Below the pieces are notes generated by a model. It was not told the origin of the DNA, did not search any database, and was given only the letters and a program-made list of their open reading frames with translations. A program made the position numbers and the translations under genes. Of a stretch of DNA of 5,333 nucleotides, positions 1 to 5,333 are shown one piece after another (positions within the stretch are counted from its first letter, which is position 1; every line of letters starts with the position of its first letter). This DNA comes from a virus (lineage: Duplodnaviria; Heunggongvirae; Uroviricota; Caudoviricetes): IMG/VR virus record IMGVR_UViG_2548876863_000010, positions 1 through 5,333 of that record; one strand, 5' to 3'.

Positions 1-557
1 ATCCTGTTTACCTCTTTCTCAGGGAGTTTAGTCTCCAGGATTCCCGGGGCGGTTCATCGCGCCCTCAACAATGAGTTTTGTGATGCGGTGCCTGGTGCCT
101 CCAGGTGACGTTAACCAGTTAACAATTAACGCCGGATACAGAGAATCCACCCATAACACTGTTTTTGGTTTTAACTGTTCCGCGTGCGCTTAGCCGCATT
201 CACCGCATCACAAAATTCACTTTAAAAAGGGCGGCAGAGCAGTCACGGAGTAAAACTGATACCGCCAAACGTCACCAGAAAATTGATAACAGAGGGCGTT
301 GCAGCGGGGTTGTCACTTAAGCGTATGGTCAACCTGACAACCCGGTGTCCTCAAGGGGAAGGAATAACCCCGCCATACTTACCGCCGCGCCATTTCGCGG
401 AGTGCCACAACCGGAAGCGCACGTTCGAAGAAATCTAACGACAAGCCTTCTAAGGGAAAGAGCTTCGCCGTACGCTTTCGCGTTATGCCCTGACTTTTCA
501 GGGAAATATCCTTTCAGTAAACTGTCAGTACCGGATTCTTATCCGTGTCCGGCGCAC

Positions 558-591
558 GACCACACGTGACAGCGTGTTGGTCTCCATTTTT
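558..591 (+). terminator. Possible intrinsic terminator (imperfect hairpin plus T-run)
   Basis: GACCACACG (558-566), 6-nt loop, CGTGTTGGTC (573-582), then TTTTT at 587-591, just upstream of the 618 ORF. The stem is imperfect (needs a bulge). Confidence 0.25.
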
Positions 592-617
592 AACCCAGAA
601 CCTCAATGGAGGATAAA

Positions 618-827
618 ATGCCAAACAAAAAAAGAAATCCGCTTATTGAAAAACAGATTGAATGCCTGGTAAATCAACTCAGGCAATCAGGGTTATTAAA
701 AACTCATTCAGAGTTGAGGCTCACAGAATCAGCATTCGACGATAAATTAAATAATGTCCTTTATAATGGCATTATTGATTTTAATCGTTCTGTTGGTCGC
801 CGCGGCCCTGCTGGTGTTTCCTTATAA
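618..827 (+). CDS. Hypothetical small protein (69 aa from ATG 618; track ORF starts at 606)
   Basis: ORF 606-827 in the track. ATG 618 is preceded by GGAGG (608-612) at 5-nt spacing; ATG 606 has no SD. AT-rich. The C-terminal 13 aa (RSVGRRGPAGVSL) look like off-frame translation of a hydrophobic segment encoded in the +1 frame (see findings). Convergent with and abutting the 216-aa gene (stop 825-827 vs stop 828-830). Confidence 0.35.
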   Translation: MPNKKRNPLIEKQIECLVNQLRQSGLLKTHSELRLTESAFDDKLNNVLYNGIIDFNRSVGRRGPAGVSL

Positions 828-1478
828 TTACCAGTCAATCCAGAGTGGACCGTGTTCAGCGTAAATATAACTGTACACATCCAGATTATATTTGTGGTCT
901 GTTAAGAACAGGCCGCAAATACATGCCGAAGCTTCCAGTGCAGCGGCTCTGTTACTGAATAACCATGTAGCAACATTCCAGCGTTTTTCTGCATCCCAGT
1001 CTTTCTCAAGGCCTGATACCATGAAGAAACCGTTAGTGTTGCCATCAAATAATTCTGTTTCCAAATTTTTAAGCAATGCCTGATGGACTCTTGCCAGGTA
1101 TTCCGCCGGAATTTCGCCACGAATTCTGATGAGATTGTCATAAACAAACATGTTCCCCGCATATGGCGATTTTTCTTTCTTGTTTTTTAAACCAGCATCA
1201 TGAGCAAACTGATCAATTTCTTCTTCCGTTGGTTTCGTATTGATGTTTTGCGCTGTCGTTTCTGCAATTTTATTTGCCACACTCTCTGAGTCGTGTTTAT
1301 TTATAGACGCACAGAAATACAATCCGGTAAACGCATCGCGCACATTACGAGCCATATTATCAGTGTCTTTTTTCGTTACCGATTCCAATTCAAGTTCGTT
1401 CAGACGATGACGAAGTGTGTGTGCTGCAATCTCCTGGATTGAAGGAGGTAAATCTTTAAATTCCATCGTCAACCTCAT
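828..1478 (-). CDS. Hypothetical protein, 216 aa (212 aa if started at internal ATG 1466..1464); no recognisable domain
   Basis: Longest ORF in an AT-rich block. The internal ATG (codon 5) has GAGG 6 nt upstream. The first ATG overlaps the TGA stop of the upstream 50-aa ORF by 1 nt, suggesting translational coupling. Charged, soluble-looking, non-repetitive sequence with no Walker, HxH or HTH motif that I can see. Confidence 0.7.
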   Translation of the reverse strand: MRLTMEFKDLPPSIQEIAAHTLRHRLNELELESVTKKDTDNMARNVRDAFTGLYFCASINKHDSESVANKIAETTAQNINTKPTEEEIDQFAHDAGLKNKKEKSPYAGNMFVYDNLIRIRGEIPAEYLARVHQALLKNLETELFDGNTNGFFMVSGLEKDWDAEKRWNVATWLFSNRAAALEASACICGLFLTDHKYNLDVYSYIYAEHGPLWIDW

Positions 1479-1630
1479 CAGTCAGTGTTTCTGGCTAACC
1501 AGCGACGCGCGCCAGCTTCAGTTTTAAACGTTTTGCTTTTGGTATACGTCATCGCGGTGAACGTACCGTCCTGGTTGGGGAACACGCCACATACCAGAGA
1601 TTCGTTGTTGCCAAGATTGAGCGTATCCAT
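1478..1630 (-). CDS. Small conserved prophage protein, 50 aa (MDTLNLGNNESLVCGVFPNQDGTFTAMTYTKSKTFKTEAGARRWLARNTD); possibly YdaF-like
   Basis: Not in the ORF track because it is under 60 aa. ATG at 1630..1628 is preceded by GAGG at 6-nt spacing; stop TGA at 1480..1478. It is the first gene behind the PL-like promoter. The resemblance to the ~50-aa YdaF/DUF1391 prophage family is recalled from memory and unverified. Confidence 0.55.
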   Translation of the reverse strand: MDTLNLGNNESLVCGVFPNQDGTFTAMTYTKSKTFKTEAGARRWLARNTD

Positions 1631-1703
1631 GTTGACCTCATTTGCCCTTAACGCCGGGGGGCGGAACTAAGACCTGTCGCACCGTTGTGCTTTGATGGGA
1701 TAT

Positions 1704-1732
1704 ATTGTTCTCTTAAGATGAACATATGTCAA
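1704..1732 (-). promoter_or_regulatory. PL-like early-left promoter with embedded inverted-repeat operator candidate
   Basis: On the minus strand: TTGACA (1732..1727), 17-nt spacer, AACAAT (1709..1704). The spacer contains TGTTC-N9-GAACA (1724..1706). The module is about 80 percent identical to the PR-like module at 2234-2262. Confidence 0.45.
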
Positions 1733-1753
1733 CATTGTGAATGCGCAAGAGGC

Positions 1754-1785
1754 AAAAAAAACCGCCTTCCGGCGGTATTGTTTTG
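1754..1785 (-). terminator. Rho-independent terminator downstream of the repressor gene (hairpin flanked by A-run and T-rich tract, so possibly bidirectional)
   Basis: CCGCC (1762-1766), loop TTCC, GGCGG (1771-1775). On the minus strand the hairpin is followed by 8 T (complement of the A-run 1754-1761), 22 nt past the repressor stop. On the + strand it is followed by TATTGTTTTG. Confidence 0.65.
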
Positions 1786-1797
1786 TAAAATAAAGAA

Positions 1798-2187
1798 TTA
1801 TTTTTGTCGCGTTATTGGGTCAACGTATTCTGAGTAAAATTCGGTCAGTTTTTGAAGGCGCATTTGAAAAGCTGCCAGCATATTTCTACGCTCTACAGGT
1901 GGCAGGTTTCTGTAAACATCAAGCAGGGCTTTCTCATCATCATCAAGCGCCTCTCTGTTTGTATCTTCTTTTCCTGTCAGTAGCCAGGAAAGGGAAACAT
2001 TTGTCGCTTCTGCAATTTTGGCTGCGGAATCTTTACTGATTGTCCCTCTTTTTTTCCAGGCGTTGACTGATGAGCGTCCTACACCAGCGATGCGCGCTAA
2101 ATCTGAACCGCTTAAATGATGCTGTTGCGAGATCGTATCTAACCTTTCTGCCAGCGGGGTGTCGTATTGCTTTTTTCTCATGTCCAT
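1798..2187 (-). CDS. Prophage repressor, DicA-like XRE-family HTH protein without a peptidase S24 domain (129 aa)
   Basis: HTH segment LSGSDLARIAGVGRSSVNAWKKRG...NVSLSWLLTG. The short acidic/helical C-terminal tail resembles the DicA architecture (from memory). Divergent from the cro-like gene. No SD; TATAAT sits 6 nt upstream of the ATG. Confidence 0.85.
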   Translation of the reverse strand: MDMRKKQYDTPLAERLDTISQQHHLSGSDLARIAGVGRSSVNAWKKRGTISKDSAAKIAEATNVSLSWLLTGKEDTNREALDDDEKALLDVYRNLPPVERRNMLAAFQMRLQKLTEFYSEYVDPITRQK

Positions 2188-2193
2188 TTAGCA

Positions 2194-2222
2194 ATTATAA
2201 CCGTTCAGTGAACACTAACAAT
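2194..2222 (-). promoter_or_regulatory. Repressor maintenance promoter (PRM-like), likely producing a leaderless mRNA
   Basis: On the minus strand: TATAAT at 2199..2194, then 6 nt (TGCTAA), then ATG at 2187..2185. A weak -35 candidate TTGTTA lies around 2221..2216. The palindrome GTTCAgTGAAC (2203-2213) sits in the spacer. Confidence 0.45.
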
Positions 2223-2233
2223 TCCTCGTAGTG

Positions 2234-2262
2234 TTGACTTATGTTCTCTTTAAGTGAACAAT
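2234..2262 (+). promoter_or_regulatory. PR-like early-right promoter with embedded inverted-repeat operator candidate
   Basis: TTGACT (2234-2239), 17-nt spacer, AACAAT (2257-2262). The spacer contains TGTTC-N9-GAACA (2242-2260). GGAGG at 2281-2285 precedes the cro-like ATG at 2290. Confidence 0.5.
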
Positions 2263-2289
2263 GTTGTGGCTGATTGAATTGGAGGTTGT

Positions 2290-2565
2290 ATGACAGCATT
2301 GGACAAGGCAATAAAGATTGCTGGTGGTATTCGTCCGCTAGGGCGTGCAATAGGGGCTTGGCCGTCTCAAATACACAAATGGGCAAATGAATACAATGGT
2401 CGAGTGCCGACAGGGGAGCGGGTTCGTCAAATTTATATTGCAACTGGGGTGACTCCTCATGAATTGCGACCAGATTTATATCCGAATCCAACCGACGGGT
2501 TGCCTGCTGGAGATAAGGCTAACACACAAAATACACCGGAGTTGATTCATGAAAATCAAGCATGA
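2290..2565 (+). CDS. Cro-like / YdaS-family HTH DNA-binding protein (91 aa)
   Basis: First gene rightward of the repressor. Strong SD (GGAGG). HTH-like segment ...GGIRPLGRAIGAWPSQIHKWAN.... Overlaps the next gene by 17 nt. Confidence 0.85.
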   Translation: MTALDKAIKIAGGIRPLGRAIGAWPSQIHKWANEYNGRVPTGERVRQIYIATGVTPHELRPDLYPNPTDGLPAGDKANTQNTPELIHENQA

Positions 2566-2974
2566 ACACATCCGCATGGCGATGAATGCTTGGGCGTATC
2601 CGGACGGTGAGAAAGTACCTGCAGCTGAAATAGCTCGGGCTTATTTCGAACTGGGGATGACGTTCCCGGAACTTTACGACGACAGCCATCCGGAAGCCCT
2701 GGCCCGTAATACCCAGAAAATTTTCCGCTGGGTGGAGAAGGACACGTCTGATGCTATTGAAAAAATTCAGGCGTTGTTACCGGCGATCGAAAAGGCGATG
2801 CCGCCTTTGCTGGTGGCCCGTATGCGCAGTCACAGTTCTGAGTATTACCGGGAGATTGTCGAACGGCGAGATCGGCTGGTGAAGGATGTCGATGATTTTG
2901 TTGCGTCAGCGGTCGTTTTATATGACCAGATAAATCGCGGCGGCCCGGCAGGGAATGCTGTGGTGATGCACTAA
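2549..2974 (+). CDS. YdaT-like prophage regulatory protein (cII-position protein; historically annotated as a toxin domain), 141 aa
   Basis: N-terminus MKIKHEHI... is typical of YdaT-family proteins in Rac-type prophages (from memory). GGAG lies 7 nt upstream. Operon position is between the cro-like gene and the replication gene. Confidence 0.8.
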   Translation: MKIKHEHIRMAMNAWAYPDGEKVPAAEIARAYFELGMTFPELYDDSHPEALARNTQKIFRWVEKDTSDAIEKIQALLPAIEKAMPPLLVARMRSHSSEYYREIVERRDRLVKDVDDFVASAVVLYDQINRGGPAGNAVVMH

Positions 2975-2996
2975 AAGCACGGTGTTCGGGGGTTTT

Positions 2997-3950
2997 ATGA
3001 GCAGCAAGCTTCATGGTCTTGTCTGGGAAGGGTGCGCCTTCACCGGCATGATCTTATCCAGGGTGGCAGTTATGGCCCGTCTTGCAGACTACAGCAATGA
3101 CGAGGGCGTGTCATGGCCTGCTATTGAAACTATCCGGCGTCAGATCGGTGCAAGAAGTGAATCCACCGTTAAATCTGCTATTGCAGAACTGGCGAAAGAG
3201 GGCTGGCTGACGAAGGAAGAGCGTAAGGTCGGTGGGCGTAATGTAAGCAATATCTATCGGCTTAATGTGGAAAAACTTGAAGCAGCTGCAGCGGCGGCGC
3301 GTGAGGCATATAAACCAAAAAGAAAAATTAGCCTGGCAAAAAATGACCCGTCAAATATTGACCCCTCAACGGTTGGCCCGTCAAATTTTGATGGATCAAC
3401 TGTTGATAAAAAACTGCCGATTAGGGGGGCGATGATTGACCCCGATCCGTCAGTATTAAAACCTGAACCGTCAGATAAAAGATCTTCTTGTCCGGACGTT
3501 TCACTGCCGGACGAAAAACAATCATCACCGGTTGAGCGATTTCTGGAGAAACACCCGGATGCGCATACCTGGAATGTCCCGAAGCGACAGTGGGGAACCC
3601 GGGAGGATTTGACGTGTGCACAGTGGATCTGGGGACGGGTTGTTGCGTTGTATGAACAGGCCGCCAGTGATGATGGGGAGGTATCACGCCCCAGAGAGCC
3701 TAACTGGACGACCTGGGCGAATGATGTGCGCATGATGCGTATGCTGGATGGACGTAGTCACCGACAGATTTGTGAAATGTTTGGGCGTGTTCAGCGGGAT
3801 TCGTTCTGGGTAAAAAACATCATGAGTCCGGCAAAACTCCGGGAAAAATGGGATGAACTGGTTATTCGCCTGGGGCGTTCGCCCGCGCAGCGTTGCGTGA
3901 ATCATATTTCTGAACCGGATACCGAAATTCCGCCTGGTTTCAGGGGGTAG
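2997..3950 (+). CDS. Phage replication initiation protein (N-terminal winged-helix DNA-binding domain; YdaU/O-like); alternative GTG start at 2982
   Basis: The track ORF starts at GTG 2982. ATG 2997 is preceded by GGGGG at 5-nt spacing and does not overlap the upstream stop at 2972-2974. N-terminal HTH-like region; central DPS/GPS repeat linker encoded by 15-bp tandem repeats (iterons). Immediately followed by the DnaC-like gene. Confidence 0.85.
   Translation: MSSKLHGLVWEGCAFTGMILSRVAVMARLADYSNDEGVSWPAIETIRRQIGARSESTVKSAIAELAKEGWLTKEERKVGGRNVSNIYRLNVEKLEAAAAAAREAYKPKRKISLAKNDPSNIDPSTVGPSNFDGSTVDKKLPIRGAMIDPDPSVLKPEPSDKRSSCPDVSLPDEKQSSPVERFLEKHPDAHTWNVPKRQWGTREDLTCAQWIWGRVVALYEQAASDDGEVSRPREPNWTTWANDVRMMRMLDGRSHRQICEMFGRVQRDSFWVKNIMSPAKLREKWDELVIRLGRSPAQRCVNHISEPDTEIPPGFRG
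3344..3403. repeat. Four tandem 15-bp iteron-like direct repeats inside the replication gene (candidate phage origin)
   Basis: TGACCCGTCAAATAT / TGACCCCTCAACGGT / TGGCCCGTCAAATTT / TGATGGATCAACTGT. Degenerate CCGTCAG-containing copies follow at about 3437-3475. An A-rich tract precedes (3311-3343) and a short one follows (3404-3412). Confidence 0.6.
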
Positions 3951-3956
3951 CGCACC

Positions 3957-4697
3957 ATGAAAAACATTACGTCAGGTGGTGTTCTGGCAAGAGTCAGCAG
4001 ATTTGTGCCGCAGGATGCAATCCCTCCGTACCGTACGGTGGCGGAGTGGCGGGAATGGCAGCTTGCTGAAGGGCGTAAGCGAAGCGAGGAGGTTAATCGT
4101 CTGAATCATCAGACGCGGGTTGAAAAAATCATTAACCGCTCCGGTATCCAGCCGCTTCACCGGAAGTGTACGTTCGGTAACTACCGGGTGCAGAACGATG
4201 GTCAGCGCCATGCCCTGAGTCAGGCGAAATCCATTGCGGCAGAGCTGGAAGGCGGCTGTACGAATTTTGTTTTCAGTGGCAGGCCTGGCACAGGAAAAAA
4301 CCACCTGGCGGCGGCTATTGGCAACCACCTTCTGGCGAAAGGTCGCAGTGTGATTGTGATAACAGTGGCGGATGTGATGCTGGCGTTACATGGCAGCTAC
4401 GACAACAAAAACTCGGGCGAAAAATTTTTGCAGGGATTGTGTGGCGTTGACCTGCTGGTACTGGATGAAATTGGCATGCAACGGGATACGCGTAATGAGC
4501 AGGTCACGCTGAATCAGATTGTTGACCGCAGAACGGCATCGTTACTCAGTGTGGGGATGCTGACAAATCTTAACCATGCAGCGATGAATACACTTCTCGG
4601 CGAGCGGGTGATGGACCGCATGTCCATGAACGGTGGTCGCTGGGTGACGTTTAACTGGGAGAGCTGGCGTCCGAACGTCAGCCAGCACAGGAACTGA
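3957..4697 (+). CDS. DnaC-like replicative helicase loader (AAA+ ATPase, IstB/DnaC family), prophage paralog, 246 aa
   Basis: Walker [16 protein letters not shown] and Walker B LLVLDEIG. Near-collinear resemblance to E. coli DnaC along its length ([54 protein letters not shown]), from memory. Confidence 0.95.
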
Positions 4698-4726
4698 GAA
4701 GTAATTTTTATCCGGAGGAAGTTTTA

Positions 4727-5333
4727 ATGGAAACCGTATTGCATGCACTGAAAGCGATGGGTAAAGCCAATTCTGTTGAACTGGCGGCGCGGCTTGATAT
4801 CAGCCGTGAAGAAGTTCTCAACGAACTGTGGGAACTCAAAAAAAATGGCGTTGTTGATAAAACGGGTCACACCTGGTTTCTGGCTGGTGAAGGTGAATCC
4901 GGGGTAACCGAAGAACAGCCAGCACAGTCTGAAGTACCGGATGTGCTGACCGGGGAGGTCGAACAAAAAGTTACTGCGGACATGATGATTGAGTTTATCT
5001 GTCAGGATGGGGCTAAAACGTGTGAGGAACTGGCGGATAAGTTCGGTGTTAGCATTCGCAAGGTTGCTTCCACGTTGGCGGTCGTAACAGCAACGGGGAG
5101 CCTGGCACGCGTAAATCAGAACGGTAAATTTCGTTACTGCATACCGGGCGCTGATTTACCGGCAGAGCCGGAAGCTGCATCGGTAACGGAAACCGATGGT
5201 AAAGCCTTTCCTCAGCCAACAGGTGTTGCGTTACCAGTCCGGGAAGCGGAAACACAGGAAGAAATAAAAACTGAAAGTGTGGCGGTCACAGTGCAGTCAC
5301 AGCCGTTGTTCACCAGAAAACATCCGGATGGTC
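4727..5333 (+). CDS. Hypothetical prophage protein, 3'-partial (runs off the window), with two winged-helix-like repeats
   Basis: ATG 4727 is preceded by GGAGGAA at 6-nt spacing. The frame is open to the end of the window (over 200 codons), which is why it is absent from the ORF track. Two similar ~40-aa segments ([28 protein letters not shown]... and [31 protein letters not shown]...). Confidence 0.75.

Follow-up and report, generated by a model that had tools for sequence, protein, structure and literature searches.

A putative replication origin of 15-bp iterons within the O-like initiator gene of a Rac-like Escherichia coli prophage

Introduction

Replication origins located inside the gene for the cognate initiator are classical for lambdoid phages. 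The GenBank-annotated iterons of lambda lie within the part of O coding for amino acids 117–145, those of phi80 lie within the part of gene 15 coding for amino acids 122–147, and in P22 a rep_origin is annotated within gene 18. Iteron plasmids (the pSC101, R6K, RK2, P1 and F class) also have tandem initiator sites, which are read by winged-helix domains and vary in number, and in which GATC sequences are sometimes involved. Here we describe an array of 15-bp repeats in a 5,333-nucleotide stretch of viral DNA (the window, i.e. the whole stretch analysed; positions 1–5,333 of IMG/VR record IMGVR_UViG_2548876863_000010). The array lies within the gene for a 317-residue protein that annotation resources already call O-like, and comparison with related genes indicates that the segment at 3333–3497 is probably a prophage replication origin, contained in the part of the initiator gene of the phage itself that codes for the linker.

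The window belongs to a lambdoid, Rac-like E. coli prophage, whose early-right region it represents. The Rac prophage of E. coli K-12 is of the same prophage type and has the same gene order (repressor, ydaS-like, ydaT-like, initiator, DnaC-like ydaV, DUF1627), and its origin, oriJ, is described as active (PMC3945230; Potrykus et al. 2000, as referred to in PMC11014345). As a precedent for the array oriJ was considered and rejected: YdaU is a DUF1376 protein of another initiator family, with a different N-terminal domain (N-domain) and middle region and only an IPPGFRG tail in common, and Tandem Repeats Finder reports no comparable array in ydaU, so that the oriJ data are not transferable. Initiators with the same N-domain family as the window (~65–67% identity) are encoded by SfIV, SfII, phiNP, LLS and Klebsiella ST101-KPC2phi6.3, where they are annotated as 'O-like' or 'primosomal protein'; the searchable literature yielded no description of the origins of this group.

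Results

The repeat array

A preliminary description of this DNA, made from the sequence alone, had proposed a lambda-like origin with four near-identical tandem 15-bp repeats at 3344–3403, whose five-codon period encodes a DPSNI/DPSTV/GPSNF/DGSTV linker. The units are in frame with the open reading frame (ORF) of 317 amino acids at 2997–3950 and the translation agrees (ND-PSNID-PSTVG-PSNFD-GSTVD), but 'near-identical' was an overstatement, as the units in that register (TGACCCGTCAAATAT, TGACCCCTCAACGGT, TGGCCCGTCAAATTT and TGATGGATCAACTGT) share 8–13 of 15 bases in pairwise comparison. Their tandem arrangement stands: with Tandem Repeats Finder, periods of 15 bp (3337–3385) and 30 bp (3347–3405; score 76, 79% matches) are reported, the longer period being the stronger because two unit types, TCAAAT(A/T)TTGA and TCAAC(G/T)GTTGR, alternate. 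In codon register there are four candidate units preceded by a degenerate one (unit 0; Table 1), and the units contain an 11-bp dyad core, TCAA-N3-TTGA, that is perfect on both strands in units 1, 3 and 4.

The repeats exist and are statistically exceptional. Self-matching at a lag of 15 reaches 32/45 at 3323 and 29/45 at 3344, the former being the top value in the window over all positions and all lags from 6 to 60, and it lies above the maxima of all 300 dinucleotide-preserving shuffles (mean 24.9, standard deviation 1.06, largest 30). A position-weight-matrix scan of the window and of 13 kb of the matching prophage finds iteron matches above 12.7 bits only in the array.

Conservation of the repeats as DNA

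A scan with an N-domain profile, taking one genome per species, gave 80 loci from many Enterobacterales genera with 78 distinct linkers, and a scan of IMG/VR gave 80 close relatives. Units were picked from the 78 linkers by amino-acid pattern alone (339 units; Escherichia, Klebsiella, Enterobacter, Yersinia, Providencia, Proteus, Pantoea, Erwinia, Edwardsiella and others). Each of the 78 linkers has two to nine five-codon units at this position, after which comes a conserved G-G-D-P-S-V ... D-P-S-D-K segment, and the unit consensus across relatives is TCAAAATCTGAC. Codon choice within the units differs from that elsewhere in the same genes: Ser1 is encoded by TCA in 300 of 339 units (16% elsewhere), Lys2 by AAA in all 233 (63% elsewhere), Asn2 by AAT in 42 of 44 (38% elsewhere) and Ser3 by TCT in 170 of 232 (9% elsewhere), and the T at unit position 9 is retained across Ser, Phe, Ile and Val.

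Shared ancestry was controlled for with 46 N-domain columns of degenerate residues conserved in at least 90% of the same 78 genes. The majority third-base fraction in these columns averages 0.54 (maximum 0.86), compared with 0.88, 0.84 and 0.74 in the repeats and 0.94–1.0 in a conserved box, GGGGATCCGTCAGTAA, to the right of the array; the N-domains of the compared genera are just 52–77% identical. Codon fixation together with this control argues that selection acts on the nucleotides and not on the peptide, and thus that the repeats are under DNA-level, not protein-level, constraint across the relatives. In the sub-lineage of the window (Erwinia, Mixta, Edwardsiella, Morganella) the encoded peptides vary (PPIID, PSNID, PPTVE, GLTVD, GSNIE) while YCAA-N3-TTGA is retained, and there are about ten units in Edwardsiella anguillarum. 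None of the 80 close IMG/VR relatives has lost the array, which has one extra unit (CCGTTAACAGTTGAC) in most of them and the shorter form of the window in two. The array is therefore present in every relative compared, and its absence from close relatives, which the preliminary description had named as evidence against an origin, was not observed.

The same data bear on the simplest alternative, that the array is a peptide repeat made by slippage within a flexible linker, functionless as DNA and with copies kept similar by recent duplication or by protein-level selection for a DPS/SKS-type motif. The array does lie in a linker that is predicted to be disordered, and copy number differs among close relatives by whole 15-bp units, as is typical of slippage. 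Neither origin of the similarity accounts for codon choice that is fixed across genera, with bases kept even across amino-acid replacements, nor for the contrast with the conserved N-domain of the same genes, whose synonymous sites are not conserved; moreover, the repeat motif of a sister lineage (mEp460-type, see below) is read in three frames to give unrelated peptides. On these comparisons slippage alone appears strongly disfavoured, and we regard it as very improbable.

Repeat type and DNA-binding domain

Initiators of the mEp460 type have the same C-terminal domain (C-domain) and junction sequence as the window but an unrelated N-domain. Their linker contains five copies of a different repeat, GGTCAAAATG, at 23–24 bp, read in three frames (GQND, EVKM, GSKW). 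Within the HTH_36 type the repeats also differ, the core being TCAAATATTGA in the window and TCAAAATCTGA in SfIV, and the putative recognition helix differs as well (STVRTAIARL against STVKSAIAEL, comparing the SfIV type with the window type). Selection at the DNA level combined with tracking of the DNA-binding domain is the behaviour expected of iterons, and on this comparative evidence the repeats most likely serve as binding sites for the initiator, within a lambda-style origin that its own gene contains.

In two mEp460-type relatives (L005, 1717–1822; L006, 1763–1890) the GGTCAAAATG array is followed by three copies of a 12-bp unit, ACAGAGAATACA, before the junction CGTCCGGA. This arrangement suggests a second type of candidate origin, in which an A-rich element is repeated.

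The initiator protein

The initiator is a mosaic of an HTH_36 N-domain, a disordered linker, a lambda-O-like C-domain and a DnaT-like tail. It matches PHROG 391 ('replication initiation O-like') over residues 1–317, its full length (E 3.9e-106). Its sole Pfam match is HTH_36 (27.8 bits against a cutoff of 25; homologues carry PF13730), and the Pfam Phage_rep_O-type N-domain is not found. The structure was modelled with AlphaFold2 from a 48-sequence alignment, in preference to a single-sequence model that was unusable (predicted local distance difference test, pLDDT, 39.8). Foldseek places the N-domain closest to winged-helix regulators of the MarR, ArsR, PadR and GntR families, with weak E values of 3e-3 to 3e-2, and a search of PDB sequences with the N-domain profile gives weak generic winged-helix matches only (E of at least 0.02). 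P22 gp18 was considered as an N-domain homologue and rejected, there being no similarity. In the model the repeats and boxes fall wholly within the linker that is predicted to be disordered.

BLASTP aligns residues 198–297 with the C-domain of lambda O (43% identity over 100 amino acids, E 1e-25) and residues 155–301 with phi80 gp15 (35% identity over 147 amino acids, E 2e-27). The tail, RCVNHISEPDTEIPPGFRG, matches the last 21 residues of the E. coli DnaT chains 2ru8, 6aep and 9zbt (E 0.002–0.007); this homology is confined to those 21 residues and the N- and C-terminal domains of DnaT are not matched. The 'primosomal protein' annotations of relatives are explained by this tail.

The DnaT-like tail is common to otherwise different initiators (K-12 Rac YdaU, SfIV gp41 and LLS gp44), and a tail followed by a DnaC paralogue reproduces the chromosomal dnaT–dnaC order of E. 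coli. A megablast search of the gene against the phage collection finds only its last 62 nucleotides, in phage Tritos, the relatives being found by protein-level search; the same 62 nucleotides recur with 93–95% identity in other genomes at the 3′ ends of genes that carry other annotations (hypothetical protein, phage replisome organiser). The tail may thus be a portable peptide for hand-over to DnaC or DnaB. A 2026 structure paper on the preprimosome assigns no function to the DnaT tail (PMC13377028), and its presence in unrelated phage initiators is a separate lead on DnaT-type hand-over to DnaC and DnaB.

DNA flanking the array

The least stable 30-mers of the gene (3302–3331, 73% A+T; 3384–3413, 77% A+T; and 3454–3483), at 65–77% A+T overall, flank or overlap the array. 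The A-rich flanks of the preliminary description are thus real, as local stability minima, but modest, and weaker evidence than it implied; there is no lambda-like 40-bp A+T block. The left A-rich flank is specific to the lineage of the window and absent in SfIV-type relatives. To the right, the DNA from the last iteron onwards (window, GTATTAAAACC...GATAAAAGATCTTCTTGTCCGGAC) aligns with lambda (AAGAAAAGATTATTCGTCAGAG) and phi80 (ATTAAAAGATCTTCGTCCGAG) over their A-rich block and right arm. The segment 3453–3497 has the motif AAAAGAT(C/T)..TTCGTC(C/A)G in common with both and overlaps the stability minimum at 3454–3483, and the A-rich block with the TTCGTCCG motif right of the array can be aligned in lambda, phi80, SfIV, mEp460 and the window. 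As judged by these alignments, homology with the O/ori region of lambda and phi80, at the equivalent position, extends to both the gene and the DNA right of the array.

Two boxes are situated to the right of the array (Table 1). Every base of the first, GATCCGTCAGTA, is the majority base in 87–100% of the 78 distinct relatives, third codon positions included. Across many genera (loci L015–L094) the box GGGGATCCGTCAGTAA and a second box, GATCC(A/G)TCAG, ~21–30 bp downstream are near-invariant DNA; both are better conserved than the iterons and each usually contains a Dam site, although the second box of the window (GAACCGTCAG) is without GATC. In one IMG/VR relative (L167) there is a clean 21-bp deletion between two direct CCGTCAG boxes (corresponding to 3447–3467 of the window), removing 'SVLKPDP'; as a natural variant, it could reveal whether the two boxes are both required.

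Conserved DNA of this kind could instead be read by a host factor (Dam/SeqA at GATC, IHF or DnaA), or could form an mRNA or antisense-RNA structure controlling translation or stability of the initiator message. The GATC sites of the window (3394, 3444 and 3481) and the GATC in both boxes of most relatives would suit the former, as would one perfect match to a relaxed DnaA-box consensus (TTTTCCACA) at 3266–3274 on the minus strand, ~60 bp left of the array. An RNA structure would suit the finding that the plus-strand linker RNA is more stably folded than all 200 of its shuffles (z −4.1; elsewhere SfIV −5.8 and Klebsiella phage −6.0). However, the proven origins of lambda (z −6.5) and phi80 (−4.6) show excess foldability too, and the value for the window is in their range, as expected for arrays of palindromic sites; the excess foldability is thus a by-product of the palindromic repeats and does not discriminate. 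It is also the sequence itself that is conserved, rather than pairing via compensatory changes, and the repeat changes with the N-domain type, which neither a host factor nor a generic RNA structure requires. DnaA-box-like sites are not enriched in the window (8 found, 12.3 expected), and there is no promoter-like site in 2900–4000. A host factor or an RNA structure is therefore an improbable explanation of the conserved DNA. The DnaA-box-like site appears to be altered in SfIV-type relatives, as judged from the SfIV residues.

Comparison with described origins

The preliminary description had called for a comparison with related origins, and the annotated lambda and phi80 iterons prove to be at the equivalent linker position, the array of the window corresponding to amino acids 113–137. 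As in lambda, four dyad-symmetric sites (putative initiator sites in the window) in the inter-domain segment are followed by A-rich DNA, if modest in the window, the C-domain is homologous, and the initiator gene is located in a rightward early operon after cro-like and cII-like genes. The differences from lambda include an N-domain of the HTH_36 family rather than that of lambda O, two extra conserved GATCCGTCAG boxes, a DnaC/IstB-like partner in place of P, and the DnaT-like tail. The repeat sequence and period also differ, as had been noted from the outset: the units abut at 15 bp, whereas lambda has 18-bp sites at 20–24 bp. A spacing of about two helical turns (20–24 bp) is thus not found in the array and occurs only between the two outlying boxes, which are 21 bp apart. 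With a period of ~1.4 helical turns successive sites would lie off one face of the helix, and the complex need not resemble the wrapped O-some of lambda.

The closest characterised C-domain is that of phi80, which has four annotated gp15-binding sites in the equivalent linker position and, to the right of its iterons, a motif (TTAAAAGATCTTCGTCCG) closely matching 3476–3494 of the window (ATAAAAGATCTTCTTGTCCG). It differs in its iterons (TTCCCGAAAACGGGAA at a 21-bp period), its lambda-O-type N-domain and its P-like partner gp14. In the SfIV group the repeats (TCAAAATCTGACSCR, five to six copies) occupy the corresponding place and likewise have a 15-bp period, the GGGGATCCGTCAGTAA box is shared, and the members are functional isolated phages; in addition to the different iteron core, several are without a DnaC-like gene, and the C-domain of phiNP and LLS is of another kind. 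Homologues of the initiator were also detected in several Klebsiella phages. Iteron plasmids differ in having 17–22 bp direct repeats outside rep, Rep monomers with two winged-helix domains and, usually, DnaA boxes. The initiator of the window has no match to a Rep family in Pfam, and its repeats are inside the gene with a 15-bp period, so that it is not of the iteron-plasmid type.

Genomic context

The initiator gene is 99.7% identical to a copy in a prophage of E. coli 2013C-3181, for which RefSeq gives the same start; there, integrase, exonuclease and dicB are encoded to one side, and RusA and Q to the other. Features of the window are listed in Table 1. The DicF small RNA is typical of the dicB region in Qin/Rac-like prophages. 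Between the dicB region and the repressor gene there is a leftwards ORF of 216 amino acids (828–1478) with no Pfam match, adjoined by a leftwards ORF of 50 amino acids (1478–1630) that probably encodes a DUF1391 protein, as judged by an approximate 19-bp offset from the gene annotated as DUF1391 in the matching prophage. Sequences matching the initiator gene are present in 1816 of 5426 complete E. coli genomes, O157:H7 prophages among them, and relatives of the initiator are spread over many Enterobacterales genera, in both phages and prophages.

Table 1. Positions of genes, protein domains and candidate origin elements in the window
Feature	Coordinates	Strand	Details
DicF antisense small RNA	229–280	-	Rfam RF00039, 76.7 bits, full length
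CI-like repressor gene	1798–2187	-	
YdaS/Cro-like gene	2290–2565	+	
YdaT/CII-like gene	2549–2974	+	
Initiator gene	2997–3950	+	317 amino acids; PHROG 391, Pfam HTH_36
N-terminal winged-helix domain, presumed iteron reader	2997–3311	+	Amino acids 1–105; pLDDT 79–91, helices and beta-hairpin wing
Left A-rich flank	3302–3331		73% A+T; least stable 30-mer in gene
Linker-coding segment, predicted disordered, holding all origin-like DNA elements	3321–3512	+	Amino acids 109–172; pLDDT 26–41, without secondary structure
Degenerate iteron-like unit 0	3333–3347		CTGGCAAAAAATGAC
Candidate iteron unit 1	3348–3362		CCGTCAAATATTGAC
Candidate iteron unit 2	3363–3377		CCCTCAACGGTTGGC
Candidate iteron unit 3	3378–3392		CCGTCAAATTTTGAT
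Candidate iteron unit 4	3393–3407		GGATCAACTGTTGAT
Box 1, iteron-like half-site with GATC	3444–3455		GATCCGTCAGTA
Candidate unwinding region and origin right arm	3453–3497		GTATTAAAACCTGAACCGTCAGATAAAAGATCTTCTTGTCCGGAC; aligns with lambda/phi80 A+T-rich block and right arm; putative unwinding role
Box 2, 21 bp from box 1	3465–3480		GAACCGTCAGATAAAA; GATCC(A/G)TCAG in most relatives
C-terminal domain; its lambda O homologue contacts the helicase-loading partner	3528–3878	+	Amino acids 178–294; pLDDT 90–98
DnaT-like C-terminal tail	3885–3947	+	RCVNHISEPDTEIPPGFRG
DnaC/IstB-like AAA+ helicase loader gene, presumed initiator partner	3957–4697	+	Pfam IstB_IS21, E 6.5e-16; PHROG 50 'DnaC-like helicase loader', E 4e-79
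DUF1627 gene	from 4727	+	

Discussion

The reading proposed at the start, of lambda-like iterons inside an initiator gene, is supported by an O-like protein, the linker position, the alignment of the right arm and the conservation of codons, which agree in pointing to 3333–3497 as the probable origin. Several points weigh against this assignment. BLASTP detects no resemblance of the N-domain to its counterparts in lambda O, phi80 gp15 or P22 gp18, and codon fixation reports selection at the DNA or RNA level and does not identify the factor that reads the sequence. The 15-bp period does not correspond to a whole number of helical turns, in contrast to the ~21-bp phasing of lambda and phi80. The putative loader is DnaC/IstB-like rather than P-type, and some relatives with the same C-domain and tail (L010, L012, L013, L003, which is SfIV, and L005) have no DnaC-like gene. 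Searchable literature, which leaves older subscription papers outside its coverage, yielded no binding or origin evidence for this initiator family. Finally, the A+T-rich element is weak (55–77% A+T), a run of six G residues (3424–3429) interrupts the right flank, and the most A+T-rich DNA of the window is intergenic (1776–1805, 90% A+T).

The last of these points would suit a different reading, in which initiator-bound repeats are mainly regulatory (autoregulation, a transcriptional roadblock, or copy-number control by handcuffing) and opening and helicase loading take place elsewhere, e.g. in A+T-rich intergenic DNA. The strongest A+T-rich, low-stability DNA of the window lies in such regions (1776–1805 and 1699–1738), the right flank of the array is just moderately A+T-rich, and plasmid iterons are known to serve both roles. 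Nevertheless, the DNA directly right of the array is homologous by alignment to the right arm of the lambda and phi80 origins, the layout agrees with that of the mapped origins within O, gene 15 and gene 18, and the intergenic A+T-rich DNA is a promoter/terminator region by the repressor gene, outside the conserved module of N-domain, repeats and boxes. A mainly regulatory role is thus unlikely, and an origin at the array is preferred.

For such an origin we infer initiator binding, unwinding, loader recruitment and origin activity as follows. After derepression, rightward early transcription of the operon with the cro-like and cII-like genes would yield the initiator, whose winged-helix N-domain would bind the dyad 15-bp iterons (TCAA-N3-TTGA, four to five copies) and the two GATCCGTCAG-type boxes to form a multimeric nucleoprotein complex. 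The complex would destabilise the neighbouring A-rich DNA, most likely 3453–3490, which is homologous to the A+T-rich region of lambda and phi80. The lambda-O-type C-domain and the DnaT-like tail would then bring the DnaC-like loader of the phage, together with host DnaB, to the opened strands, where host primase and Pol III would take over. In relatives without a DnaC-like gene, a DUF977, PerC-like or other gene is directly downstream of the initiator; as there are several of these, a phage-encoded loader seems to be optional, and host DnaC may serve in its place.

The classical location of the origin and the O-like nature of the protein are known features, and what differs is the family of the DNA-binding domain, the sequence and period of the iterons, the invariant GATC-containing boxes, and the loading module of DnaT-like tail and DnaC-type protein. 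A more specific and rather doubtful proposal is that these differences amount to a distinct origin design. An HTH_36 initiator might coat abutting palindromic 15-bp sites that spiral around the helix (~1.4 turns per site), with the GATC-containing GGGGATCCGTCAGTAA box used for nucleation or for methylation-sensitive control and with DnaB delivered via the DnaT-type tail and the DnaC paralogue. If this were true, the hand-off from DnaT to DnaC that operates in the replication-restart primosome would have been adopted by an initiator specific to one origin.

This type of replication module is widespread, and the location of its origin and of the bases constrained as DNA is of practical use. It could help in making or disabling prophage-derived replicons and in reading the copy-number peaks of induced prophages in Stx strains. 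It also allows annotation of a linker that otherwise resembles low-complexity protein, and it bears on the planning of recoding, in that synonymous changes in this segment would not be neutral.

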